A stretch of DNA of 28,636 bases from Planctomycetota bacterium. GTDB lineage: Bacteria; Planctomycetota; SZUA-567; H5-PLA8; CALKMO01. Made by a program: the position numbers and the translations under genes. Position 1 is the first letter of the stretch; each line of letters opens with the position of its first letter. Positions 4,362-14,092 of the stretch are shown in pieces. The DNA lies in assembly GCA_026417845.1 (NCBI GenBank), contig JAOACM010000001.1, positions 2,460-31,095 on the forward strand, given 5' to 3'. The notes under the pieces were generated by a model. That model worked only from the letters and a program-made list of their open reading frames with translations, had not been told where the DNA came from and did not search any database.

Positions 4362-4393
4362 AAAACAACGGCGCGCGGGGCGTCCCGCGCGCC
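4362..4393 (-). terminator. Intrinsic-terminator-like hairpin after rpsI
   Basis: Minus strand GGCGCGCGGG-ACGC-CCCGCGCGCC (perfect 10-bp stem) followed by GTTGTTTT, 18 nt after the rpsI stop. Confidence 0.6.
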
Positions 4394-4411
4394 ACGCCGG
4401 AAAGCGAACGA

Positions 4412-4822
4412 TCAGCGCTTCGAGTACTGGAACCTCTTCCGCGCGCCCGGCCGGCCGTACTTCTTCCGTTCGACCTTGCGGGGATCCCTGGTGAGATAGC
4501 CTTCCTCCCTGAGCCCCTTCTCAAGGTTCTGGTCGTATTCGACCAGCGCCCTGGCTACGCCTAGCCTTATAGCCTCCGCCTGCCCGGTCGTTCCCCCGCC
4601 GCGCACGTTGACGAAAACGTCGAAGGTATTTTCCATCTTGACAAAGGTCAGCGGCGATATGGCAGCCTTGCGGCAGACCTCGGTTGGGAAATATTCCTTG
4701 AGAGGACGTCCGTTAATCACGAACTGCCCCTGGCCGGGCCTGATGCGAACTCTCGCGGTCGCCGTCTTGCGCCGTCCCGTTCCCCAGATGTAACCCGCGG
4801 TTTTCCTGTCAGCCGGAGCCAA
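4412..4822 (-). CDS. rpsI: 30S ribosomal protein S9
   Basis: GTGRRKTATARV, GGGTTGQAEAIRLG and LTRDPRKVERKKYGRPGARKRFQYSKR; TTG start with AAGGAGG SD. Confidence 0.98.
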   Translation of the reverse strand: MAPADRKTAGYIWGTGRRKTATARVRIRPGQGQFVINGRPLKEYFPTEVCRKAAISPLTFVKMENTFDVFVNVRGGGTTGQAEAIRLGVARALVEYDQNLEKGLREEGYLTRDPRKVERKKYGRPGARKRFQYSKR

Positions 4823-5601: not shown

Positions 5602-5631
5602 TTGACATCGGTCCGGGATCGCGGTTAGAAT
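5602..5631 (+). promoter_or_regulatory. Sigma70-type promoter for the FHA gene
   Basis: TTGACA (5602-07), 18-nt spacer, TAGAAT (5626-31). Confidence 0.7.
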
Positions 5632-10815: not shown

Positions 10816-11868
10816 ATGCTGCTGGATGCCGTTCTGGGAGCCTTGTCCAAGGACCTTGGGATAGATCTTGGCACCGCAAATACGCTCGTGACGGCCAGGG
10901 GCGAGGGGATCATATTGATGGAGCCTTCCGTGGTCGCCGTCAAGAAGGGCACCAACCAGGTGCTGATGAACGGCGAGGCCGTTGGAGAGAAGGCCAAGCA
11001 GATGCTGGGCAAGACGCACGGCAGCATCCAAGCGATCCGCCCCATGAAGGACGGCGTGATAGCCGACTTCGAGATAACTGAGGCGATGCTGTCGTATTTC
11101 ATCCGCAAGGCGCACGGCAGGTCGCGGTTCATCCGCCCGAGGGTCATAATAGCCGTCCCGTCGGGAATAACGACGGTGGAGAAGCGGGCCGTGATCAACT
11201 CTGCGGAAAGGGCGGGGGCGCGGGATGTCAGGTTGATCGAGGAGCCGATGGCGGCGGCGCTCGGCGTCGGCCTGCCGGTCTCCGAACCCCGCGGTTCGAT
11301 GATCGTGGACATAGGCGGCGGCACCTGCGAGGTGGCCGTCATAAGCCTGCTGGGGATAGTGTGCAGCAAGAGCGTAAGGACGGCGGGAGACGAGTTCGAC
11401 CAGGCGATAATCGAGCACATGAAGCACAGGTACAACCTGCAGATCGGCGAGGCAACGGCCGAGCGGATCAAGATCGAGATAGGATCGGCCTACCCCATGG
11501 AGGAAGAGAAGACGCTGGAGGTCAAGGGCCGCGACACGCTGGCCGGGCTGCCCAGGTCGGTGGTGGTGTCGAGCGAGGAGATACGCGAGGCGTTGAGGCC
11601 CGCGGTGGATGAGATAATCGGGGCGATACGCGAGGTGCTTGAGAAGTGCCCGCCGGAGCTGGCCAGCGACCTGATAGATAACGGGATCACCATGGCCGGC
11701 GGCGGTTCGCTGCTGCGCGGCATAGACAAGCTGGTCGCCCGCGAGACCGGATTGCCGGTCAAGCGTGCGGACGATCCTCTTACCGCGGTCGCGCGCGGCA
11801 CCGGCGTGGTCCTCGAACAGATAGACGAACTCTGGCCGGTCCTGGCCAATGGCAGGGATCTTGAATGA
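10816..11868 (+). CDS. mreB: Rod-shape-determining actin-like protein MreB
   Basis: DLGIDLGTANT, EPSVVA, RPMKDGVIADF, IAVPSGITTVEKRAV, EEPMAAALG, VDIGGGT, AGDEFD, TAERIK and AGGGSLLRG. Confidence 0.97.
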   Translation: MLLDAVLGALSKDLGIDLGTANTLVTARGEGIILMEPSVVAVKKGTNQVLMNGEAVGEKAKQMLGKTHGSIQAIRPMKDGVIADFEITEAMLSYFIRKAHGRSRFIRPRVIIAVPSGITTVEKRAVINSAERAGARDVRLIEEPMAAALGVGLPVSEPRGSMIVDIGGGTCEVAVISLLGIVCSKSVRTAGDEFDQAIIEHMKHRYNLQIGEATAERIKIEIGSAYPMEEEKTLEVKGRDTLAGLPRSVVVSSEEIREALRPAVDEIIGAIREVLEKCPPELASDLIDNGITMAGGGSLLRGIDKLVARETGLPVKRADDPLTAVARGTGVVLEQIDELWPVLANGRDLE

Positions 11869-12222
11869 CATAGGAGCCGGCCTTCGGTGTCGCCGGGGAT
11901 GCCGGGGGCGCATAACCGCGGTCCGCTCCGTGCGCGCCGTGTCCGTTTGACCGTCCGACCGGAGATCCGCATTACTCCTTCGAAAAGAGCGTTCGCGAAC
12001 CTTCACGGGCGGGAGAACCGCGGCGATGTCGGGAGTCCCCCTCCAAGACCCGGTCCCCGGGCGCAGGATTCTCCTGCAAGATGTCCGCCTGACGGGACCG
12101 AACTTACCCCCTGGCTCGCAAACGCAGGATCATCCGCGATCTCCTTTGCCGGATACTCCCTTGGCACCTCGGCCCCGGATCAGGAGTGGAACGGCCTTTC
12201 CTGCGAAAAGCGAAAAACACCG

Positions 12223-12250
12223 TTGACGCGGGAGATAGCGGCAATAGAAT
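12223..12250 (+). promoter_or_regulatory. Sigma70-type promoter for the rplD-initiated ribosomal protein cluster
   Basis: TTGACG (12223-28), 16-nt spacer, TAGAAT (12245-50), with A-rich GAAAAGCGAAAAAC immediately upstream. Confidence 0.7.
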
Positions 12251-12339
12251 GTCTGTTAACCCTACGTGGGTCGGATGTACCCCTTAAGGGCTCGCAGGCG
12301 GAAGAAACCGCGACTGAAAGCCTTGGGGCCATTGACGAC

Positions 12340-12449
12340 GCGGGGAGTAGAAGGTTCCGGGCCGGGGGCGTTCCGGCCGCTGCTTCCTGGGGGGAGAAGC
12401 AGGTGGCCCGCCCGAAGGAACGGCCGCAGCCTTCTACTCCTCGTTGTTT
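12340..12449 (+). promoter_or_regulatory. Long hairpin in the rplD 5' leader (candidate ribosomal leader/attenuator)
   Basis: CGGGGAGTAGAAGG 12341-54 pairs with CCTTCTACTCCTCG 12430-43. Inner stems: CGTTCC/GGAACG, GGCCG/TGGCC, CTGCTTC/GAAGCAG. The 3' arm continues into TTGTTTG. Confidence 0.55.
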
Positions 12450-12484
12450 GTCGAAAGGGATTGGAACTCTGAAGGGCGGACGAG

Positions 12485-13111
12485 ATGATCGAGCTTCCCG
12501 TATATAACGAATCCGGGCAGGAGGTCGGGAAGGTGCAGCTCGACGAAAAGCTGCTCGGGGAGAAGATCCGCCGGCGGCTGATGCATCAGGCGGTGGTGCA
12601 GGCCGAGGCCGACCGGCGCCAGGGCACGCACTCGACCAAAACCAAGGGCGAACGGGCCGGGTCCGGGAAGAAGCCTTGGAGGCAGAAGCACACCGGCCGC
12701 GCGCGGGCCGGAATGAAAAGGTCGCCCCTGTGGGTCAAGGGCGGCAGGATATTCGGGCCCAAGCCGCGGGACTATACGCAGAGGATGCCCGCCCGTTCCC
12801 GCCGGGAGGCGTTGAAAAGCGCCCTGCTTTCCAAGTTCCTCGACAAGGAAGTCAAGGTGATAGATGCCCTGGCGTTCGACCGTCCGAAGACGGCACGGTT
12901 GAACAGGACGCTCAAGGCGCTCGGCATGGAAGGGACCACGCTGGTGGCCGTCCGCGAGGCGACCGAGGCGCTGGTCAAGAGCGCGAGGAACATGGCAACC
13001 TGTCGGCTCCTGAGGGCGCGCGACATGAACGCCTACGATGTCCTCAGACACAAGAACCTCCTGTTCACCAGGGATGTGATAGAAAACTTCCGGGAGGTAA
13101 TCCACGCATGA
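12485..13111 (+). CDS. rplD: 50S ribosomal protein L4
   Basis: RQGTHSTKTKGE, GKKPWRQKHTGRARAG, SPLWVKGGRIFGPKPRDY and NAYDVLRH. Confidence 0.98.
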   Translation: MIELPVYNESGQEVGKVQLDEKLLGEKIRRRLMHQAVVQAEADRRQGTHSTKTKGERAGSGKKPWRQKHTGRARAGMKRSPLWVKGGRIFGPKPRDYTQRMPARSRREALKSALLSKFLDKEVKVIDALAFDRPKTARLNRTLKALGMEGTTLVAVREATEALVKSARNMATCRLLRARDMNAYDVLRHKNLLFTRDVIENFREVIHA

Positions 13112-13404
13112 TCTCGGATCCTTACGCCGTCATAAGGCGTCCCATAATGACGGAGAAGAGCCATTCGATCCGGAAGGATCGGAACCAGTATACGTTCGAG
13201 ATACACAGGAGCGCGACGAAGGACGATGTGAAGCGCGCCGTGGAAAAGCTGTTCAACGTGAAGGTTGCGGCGGTGCGCACGATGAACATCAAGCCCAGGA
13301 CGAAGGTCTTCCGCAGGCTCAGGGGCAAACCGGGCAAGACGCGCGGATGGAAGAAGGCGATCATTACGCTGGCGCCGGGTTCCCCCGGCATAGACGTGTT
13401 GTAG
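13108..13404 (+). CDS. rplW: 50S ribosomal protein L23
   Basis: RPIMTEKS, YTFEI, AVEKLFNVKV and GWKKAIITL; ATG overlaps the rplD stop (ATGA). Confidence 0.96.
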   Translation: MISDPYAVIRRPIMTEKSHSIRKDRNQYTFEIHRSATKDDVKRAVEKLFNVKVAAVRTMNIKPRTKVFRRLRGKPGKTRGWKKAIITLAPGSPGIDVL

Positions 13405-13435: not shown

Positions 13436-14092
13436 ATGTCGGGCATGGAGGCAGGATCCGAGCGGACGGAGAAGGGCGGGGGGACGCTTCCGAAGGAGAA
13501 GGCCGGAGGACCGGGGAGGGGAGCTGAGACCGGGGCGGAGGGTACGGAGGGAGAGAAGGAAGGCGGGGAACGCGTCGGATCCAGGCTGCGGGGATGGGTG
13601 GACTTGGCGGTACGGGCCGGATTCTGGGCCCTGGTAATCTACATGTTCGTCTTCCAGGTCTCCGTCGTCTACGGCATCTCGATGCTCCCGAACTTCGACA
13701 CGAACGACCGGCTGGTGGTGGACAAGATATCCTGCCGGGTGGGAGTAATTAACAGGTTCGACGTGGTGGTTTTCGAGGCGGTAGTTTGCGAGAAGGGGCA
13801 GTACCGGAGGAAGGATTTCATCAAGCGCGTGATAGGGCTGCCCGGGGAAAGGGTGGAGATAAAAGGGGGATGCATACTGATAAACGGCGAGCCTCTGAAC
13901 GAGGAGTACCGGACGCTGGGCCGGTGCGAAGACGGAGTCTGGGAGGTCCCCGAGGGCCGGTACTTTGTGCTGGGAGACAACCGTTCGGTAAGCAACGACA
14001 GCCGGAGATACATAGGATTGGTGGCGGACTCGCAGATCAAGGGAAAGGTGAGGTTGAGGTTCTGGCCCTGGGAGAAACGGAGCTGGTTTTAA
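13436..14092 (+). CDS. lepB: Signal peptidase I (S26 family)
   Basis: One TM helix, then catalytic Ser box GISMLPN, DRLVVDK, catalytic Lys box DFIKRVIGLPGE, YFVLGDNRSVSNDSR and IKGKVRLRFWP. Confidence 0.94.
   Translation: MSGMEAGSERTEKGGGTLPKEKAGGPGRGAETGAEGTEGEKEGGERVGSRLRGWVDLAVRAGFWALVIYMFVFQVSVVYGISMLPNFDTNDRLVVDKISCRVGVINRFDVVVFEAVVCEKGQYRRKDFIKRVIGLPGERVEIKGGCILINGEPLNEEYRTLGRCEDGVWEVPEGRYFVLGDNRSVSNDSRRYIGLVADSQIKGKVRLRFWPWEKRSWF

Follow-up and report, generated by a model that had tools for sequence, protein, structure and literature searches.

In the 28,636-nt stretch of Planctomycetota DNA analysed here (the window), a gap of 617 nt separates mreB (10816–11868, + strand) from rplD (12485–13111, + strand), the product of which matches the Pfam family Ribosomal_L4 (1.5e-60). 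The next ribosomal protein, L23 (rplW), was read from the frame that ends at 13404, and a signal peptidase I gene (Pfam S26, 4e-40; 13436–14092) lies between rplW and rplB within the ribosomal operon. In the same assembly, which is 80% complete, the genes for S10 (rpsJ) and L3 (rplC) are located on contigs C34 and C41, respectively, and the operon thus begins at rplD. The split of the operon was likewise observed in all 29 relatives of the class that were examined (loci L005–L033), in none of which was L3 found within 1.5 kb upstream of L4.

The gap upstream of rplD contains a promoter followed by a structured leader of ∼230 nt that extends to the rplD start codon (Table 1), as the first-pass annotation of this DNA had described. 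The promoter is the sole sigma-70-like site within 11700–12700, where shuffled sequences predict 0.1 such sites, and its geometry predicts a transcription start at ∼12257, about 7 nt past the TAGAAT element. A further near-consensus promoter (TTGACA-18-TAGAAT, 11 of 12 matches; window 5602–5631) was noted in the upstream region of rplM.

Three helices, P0, P1 and P2, follow one another in the leader. The small 5' hairpins of the earlier description correspond to P0, which is not significant as a fold on its own, and to P1, a conserved hairpin that we presume to be a protein-binding module. The rod of ∼105 nt reported there is the same object as P2, which proves to be 103 nt long; its helix count of 14+6+5+7 bp is only approximate, the predicted fold having a perfect basal duplex of 16 bp (GGGGAGUAGAAGG.../...CCUUCUACUCC) and, further up, helices of 3+2+5+6+6+2 bp. 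None of 200 shuffled sequences folds as well as P2.

Table 1. Promoter, structural elements and spacers of the rplD leader, numbered from the first nucleotide of the window.
Feature	Position	Strand	Description
Sigma-70-type promoter	12223–12250	+	TTGACG (-35), 16-nt spacer, TAGAAT (-10)
P0, small 5'-proximal hairpin	12259–12271	+	ACCC-UACGU-GGGU, 4 bp; fold alone not significant
P1, conserved 49-nt hairpin	12280–12328	+	Presumed protein-binding module; -24.7 kcal/mol, z -2.4
P1–P2 linker	12329–12340	+	
P2, 103-nt rod	12341–12443	+	Terminator-like hairpin; -66.8 kcal/mol, z -4.65
U-rich tail	12444–12451	+	UUGUUUGU, directly after P2; predicted 3' end of the attenuated transcript
Spacer before the rplD ATG	12452–12484	+	Contains Shine-Dalgarno-like GAAGGG (12471–12476)

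The end of P2 and its tail read CUC-GUUGUUUGUC (12440–12452), and 41 nt separate the end of P2 from the rplD ATG. With 6 U in 10 positions the tail is combined with a very strong hairpin, and a simple terminator scanner skips this structure, the loop of P2 being larger than the limit of the program. A comparable tail is found elsewhere in the window, downstream of rpsI (4412–4822, - strand; Pfam S9), where a 12-bp GC hairpin (4368–4395, - strand) is followed by CCGT-TGTTTTCC (GUUGUUUU). This is the same interrupted U tail as that of the rplD leader, a resemblance already pointed out in the first-pass annotation, and its presence at the rpsI terminator counts in favour of termination at the leader.

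When the leader is folded to its minimum free energy, its U-rich tail is paired with GGGCGGACG near the Shine-Dalgarno-like site (within the spacer of Table 1), and it is possible that such pairing would have an additional effect on translation in transcripts that read through.

Conservation of the leader upstream of rplD in related genomes

A blastn search with the leader against 60 relatives returned nothing useful. The regions upstream of rplD in 29 relatives were taken by tblastn and read, and a covariance model of P1, referred to here as R1, was then built. The same layout of P1, P2 and U-tract precedes rplD in all 17 genomes of a sister family (f2), with L4 proteins that are 57–64% identical; the closest relatives of the L4 of the window are P0002, P0003 and P0004 (88%, 85% and 72% identity, respectively). 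Within the order, R1 finds exactly one match per genome in 18 of the 20 genomes, each of them upstream of rplD. The two genomes that give no match are G001, which is 61% complete and in which L4 was also not found, and G003, an unpublished genome, so that the absence of the motif from family f3 is an absence from this one genome. In the genome of the window the leader is present as a single copy, and the match in the window (12276–12331; 40.9 bits, E 4e-8 for the genome) is the sole match.

A pattern scan of JGI metagenomes yielded 56 stretches, of which 18 score 58–73 bits with R1, and all 18 of these lie directly before an L4 gene. Altogether, orientation and position are constant, as each of the 31 elements lies directly before rplD. 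Outside the order, R1 has no match in 42 further genomes of the class, and in a sample of 151 genomes of the phylum its matches fall in members of the order, except for two weak matches in a distant Planctomycetota genome (G185). These two matches belong to a short repeat, GGGCUGAAAGCCCG..UCAUAGCCCAGGGCAGAGCGAAGCGUCGCCCUGGG, that is present there in at least two copies (L191 16–62, - strand, and L192 1501–1547, + strand). The repeat, whose likeness to P1 is weak (29–34 bits), was set aside as unrelated to rplD, which was not seen beside either copy in the stretches read.

The neighbours on the upstream side vary: mreB precedes the leader in the window and in none of the relatives, and a tRNA gene precedes it in G004 and G010. 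By comparison, the promoter stays at a fixed distance from the structured element. In 27 of 31 leaders it consists of a TTGAC-like -35 element (mostly TTGACG), a spacer of exactly 16 nt and TAnnnT, and the remaining 4 carry near-consensus variants; the distance from promoter to P1 is 20–28 nt, or 48 nt in one leader. The combination of a fixed promoter distance and varying neighbours indicates that the element moves together with rplD and does not serve a gene further upstream as its terminator. Among the relatives, a CCCU...GGGG hairpin occupies the place of P0 in almost all cases, and the linkers between P1 and P2 measure ∼10–16 nt in most when judged by eye, two of them having an inserted hairpin. 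The U-tract begins 22 to 150 nt before the ATG.

Structural conservation among relatives, on which the first-pass annotation had made its reading of the leader depend, is present, and both P1 and the base of P2 covary. The P1 consensus of the sister family, read by eye, is CC.YAGRGCUYGAAAGCGG...CCGYAAG.UCARAGCYCRAGG. Across 31 distinct sequences, 95% of the cells of the P1 alignment are paired and 10 of 17 base pairs have changes on both sides, which is reached by none of 500 shuffles, and control alignments in which the partner strand was slid collapse to 17–53% paired. For the base of P2 (GGG(AG)UCGAAG.../...CUUCGGCU(CCC) by eye in the sister family; 14 bp, 30 sequences), 88.6% of the cells are paired and both partners have changed in 7 of 14 pairs, again matched by none of 500 shuffles, with 31–53% paired in the slid-partner controls. 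As the compared genomes are related to one another, these shuffle statistics overstate the independence of the changes. At one position of the P2 base the pair is G-C in 12 sequences, U-A in 12 and C-G in 2. The basal helix of P2 in the window is homologous to GGGAGUCGAAGG/CCUUCGGCUCCC of the relatives and adds a swap from C-G to A-U. G.U pairs are frequent in the P2 base and would read as C.A mismatches on the opposite strand, which places the structure on the sense (+) strand of rplD.

Terminator variants and the diverged copy in the window

Of 32 leaders, 31 have a U-tract after P2. Most of these tails have 7–9 U in 10 positions, being of the UUUUUUGUUU (9 of 10 U) or the UUGUGUUUGG type, and the P2 of most relatives runs out into UUUUUUGUUUU, which gives it the form of a canonical intrinsic terminator. 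The leader family therefore has the form of an intrinsic terminator, with a GC-rich hairpin and then a U-tract between promoter and start codon. Two subtypes of rod can be distinguished. Type A rods are weaker (-34 to -44 kcal/mol), contain an inner GGAAAGG...CCUUAACC module and mostly have a canonical tail, UUUUUUGUUU in most cases. Type B rods are stronger (-37 to -60 kcal/mol) and have interrupted tails (UUGUGUUUGG, UCGUUGUUUG); most members carry a GGGGGA-like G-run in the upper part of the rod, which lies in the apical loop in the window; in several relatives of type B a comparable run, judged by eye, remains unpaired along the 3' side of the upper rod. The possibility that the inner part of the type A rod is a duplicated P1 module was dropped, there being one weak match to R1 only (10.1 bits, E 0.48), and a comparison of the type B G-run with the 23S rRNA segment GGGGGGACCACCCCCC was rejected since the pairing context differs.

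In the alignment and the table of tails, a stronger P2 stem generally goes with a poorer U-tract, and vice versa. This trade-off looks like compensation that keeps the efficiency of termination intermediate.

The copy in the window is the most diverged of the family, with the lowest R1 score (the others score 49–73 bits), and it represents an extreme of type B: no other P2 stem is as strong, and few U-tracts are as weak. The helices of P1 are kept, for example through the replacement of a 3-bp GAA/UUC by CAG/CUG. In the relatives, P1 contains a near-invariant GAAAG/GUAAG internal loop, with AG on the 5' side and UAAG on the 3' side; in the window this loop is missing, reduced to a 2-nt GA bulge. 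Given the reduced loop of P1, the strongest stem and the weak U-tract, the regulation of the window copy may be weaker or differently tuned.

The opposite change is seen in a relative of low GC content (G013; L011 2116–2226, - strand), where promoter, P0 and P1 are kept and the P2 rod with its terminator has been lost. P1 ends there ∼20 nt before the ATG of rplD, beside the Shine-Dalgarno sequence. Retention of P1 in a leader that has no P2 points to P1 as the core functional module of the family, and its location suggests that control in G013 may be purely translational.

Proposed attenuation mechanism and its alternatives

The leader is a covarying 5' UTR structure specific to one ribosomal-protein operon, the combination that characterizes autogenous ribosomal-protein leaders. 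It is therefore probable that it functions as a lineage-specific ribosomal-protein leader that controls the operon by autogenous transcription attenuation at rplD, a role that the first-pass annotation had suggested and that gains support from the conservation of promoter, P0, P1, P2 and U-tract upstream of rplD across 31 distinct sequences. In the mechanism that we propose, transcription would start at the predicted site ∼7 nt past TAGAAT, and the nascent RNA would fold P0, next P1 and next P2, the 3' arm of which runs into the U-rich tract and would thus form an intrinsic terminator before the first gene. A ribosomal protein of the operon, when in excess over free rRNA, would bind P1 beside P2 and increase termination at the U-tract; when this protein is scarce, the polymerase would read through into rplD. 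L4 would be the favoured candidate for the protein that binds P1, from the position of the leader and by analogy with the precedent in Escherichia coli.

The similar 5' arms CCUCCAGGGCUUGAA and CUCCAGGGAGUCGAA prompted us to consider a two-state switch in which P1 would pair through its 3' arm with the 5' arm of P2 as an antiterminator. The fold energies of this pairing are no better than those of shuffled sequences (z from -2.2 to +1.6, centred near 0) and do not support it. Consequently, any switch would have to be driven by a protein or another factor and not by a simple two-state fold.

Several other functions could be assigned to a structured leader at this position. It could be a constitutive structural 5' UTR that acts without feedback, in which P0 and P2 shield the polycistronic mRNA from decay at its 5' end, or in which P2 is an RNase III-type site, the tail being incidental. 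We regard this as unlikely. P0 does lie at the very 5' end, like hairpins that stabilize mRNA, the P2 duplex of the window is perfect over 16 bp, and both the weak U-tract of the window and the negative result of the antiterminator analysis are compatible with a purely structural role; however, the near-invariant unpaired nucleotides of P1 (GAAAG/GUAAG), the canonical UUUUUUGUUUU after the 3' arm of P2 in most relatives and the retention of P1 where P2 is lost, as in G013, would all be left unexplained.

The possession of a conserved promoter of its own and of a terminator-like end would also be expected of an independent gene for a trans-acting small RNA of ∼190 nt, from which rplD would be transcribed by read-through only, and the G-rich apical loop of the window rod, or the unpaired G-run of type B relatives, could then pair with targets. 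The invariable placement of the element, which in all 31 cases lies immediately ahead of rplD and never in the reverse orientation, and its occurrence as one copy per genome make such a gene very unlikely, as do the lack of a second promoter-like site between leader and rplD in the window and the G013 leader, whose P1 abuts the Shine-Dalgarno sequence and is not followed by a terminator.

We consider it highly improbable that attenuation here is riboswitch-like or factor-dependent and responds to a signal other than a ribosomal protein, be it a metabolite, an alarmone or some general transcription factor. As a simple hairpin, P1 has no multi-helix junction or pocket of the kind usual for metabolite aptamers, and occurrence as one copy per genome, only before a ribosomal-protein operon, is the signature of an autogenous leader (PMC7247131), although a conserved hairpin with an invariant internal loop next to a terminator would suit such a sensor and L4 is a candidate ligand only. 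Ribosome-mediated attenuation through a leader peptide can practically be discarded: a 68-codon GTG frame (12266–12472) overlaps the leader of the window, but no conserved short ORF exists in the leaders, 9 of 31 having no ATG and the others having ATGs that are not conserved in position or length, the loop of P1 varies by 1, 2 or 3 nt between leaders, and the overlapping ORFs have no Pfam match.

With regard to the origin of the attenuator that we propose, the first-pass annotation had suggested an acquisition of the leader at the time of the split at rplD. The operon does begin at rplD, as noted above; the timing of the acquisition may have been different, as the split is found in all 29 relatives of the class and the RNA in two families only, so that the leader looks younger than the split.

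Relation to known ribosomal-protein leaders

The closest functional parallel is the S10 leader of E. coli, which comprises dispensable 5' hairpins, a hairpin implicated in the binding of L4 (HD) and a long bulged hairpin with a U run (HE), at which L4 and NusA enhance termination, and which also mediates translational repression (PMC3616713). The regulatory RNAs of E. coli ribosomal proteins are mostly confined to Gammaproteobacteria (PMC3616713), and the gammaproteobacterial S10 leader and the rplD leader share a narrow phylogenetic range in addition to being the 5' leaders of operons that encode L4. The two are also alike in general architecture, with variable 5' hairpins, a conserved hairpin and a long imperfect hairpin with a U run before the first gene, and neither has an obvious antiterminator. 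They differ in that the rplD leader precedes rplD and not rpsJ, S10 and L3 being encoded elsewhere, and in that it has no counterpart of HG, the hairpin that overlaps the start codon in the S10 leader. Termination in the S10 leader is stimulated by L4 acting with NusA; L4 binding and NusA dependence of the rplD leader would be by analogy only. A search of Rfam 15 with cmscan, proposed as a check in the first-pass annotation, returned no family for the window or its relatives at gathering or permissive thresholds and no ribosomal-leader match at E up to 10, in a collection that may include no S10-leader model.

In the L20 leader, the terminator and antiterminator folds are mutually exclusive, whereas no antiterminator is detectable in the rplD leader. 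Otherwise the leaders of the Bacillus subtilis type, exemplified by that of L20 upstream of infC-rpmI-rplT (PMC1865079) and by those of L10, L13, L19 and L21 in Rfam, resemble it in that a structured 5' region and an intrinsic terminator are placed ahead of the genes of a ribosomal-protein operon. Feedback by the encoded ribosomal protein is presumed in both, and the structure of the rplD leader is unrelated to these families, none of which was matched by cmscan. The evidence presented here is of the same kind as that used by Eckert and Weinberg (2020) for ribosomal-leader candidates identified by comparative genomics, namely a covarying structure upstream of ribosomal-protein genes with a ligand proposed from precedent or proximity (PMC7247131). 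Their L4 candidate precedes rplC-rplD and is from Archaeoglobi, and the main text of that study contains no motif from Planctomycetes ('Planctomyc' occurs 0 times).

A full-text literature search found no paper on an L4 leader in Planctomycetota, and no leader of any ribosomal protein described for this phylum was found in Rfam 15 or in the literature searched. The rplD leader thus represents an RNA family not described before; its functional kind is well known, and in the searches made here it occurs in two families of a single Planctomycetota order only. How the synthesis of ribosomal proteins is controlled by feedback is understood in just a handful of model bacteria, and the rplD leader offers a concrete candidate with a defined promoter, 31 natural variants, a putative binding hairpin and a terminator. 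The two rod subtypes, the version that has lost its terminator and the diverged copy of the window constitute natural 'experiments' that could show how feedback circuits re-arise after an operon is split, and R1 provides a practical means of annotating the rplD leaders of the order in metagenomic sequences.

The similarities to the S10 leader allow a more specific reading, which we put forward tentatively as a possibility that falls short of being likely: after the S10 operon broke up, this lineage may have built an attenuator of the L4/NusA style anew, converging with an unrelated RNA on the logic of the E. coli S10 leader. Such convergence would be seen in the placing of a protein-binding hairpin beside a long terminator hairpin with no antiterminator; the two P2 subtypes would trade stem strength against the quality of the U-tract, and one lineage would keep P1 alone at the ribosome-binding site. 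A more unusual variant of this convergence is that P1 would imitate the apex of 23S rRNA helix 101 and be recognized by some protein that is not L4. When the 23S rRNA of G002 was scanned with R1, the highest-scoring match was this apex, which is not known to be an L4 site: AAGCGGGG-UAA-CCCGUAAGC (nt 2891–2910 of the 23S rRNA; L190 1535–1554, - strand), a weak match of 10.5 bits (E 0.065) that aligns with the P1 consensus AAGCGGG...CCCGUAAG at the nucleotides flanking the loop. The likeness is suggestive but weak, and may reflect either mimicry of rRNA or chance.

A different conserved leader occurs in four genomes of another family of the same class (f5; L022–L025), in the ∼200 nt upstream of rplD. 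Its promoter is of the TTGACA type and is followed by a region of several stems that contains GCGGCCAAGGCA, and then by a GC hairpin and 7–8 consecutive U just before the Shine-Dalgarno sequence. Leaders of rplD that bear a terminator may thus have arisen more than once in this class.
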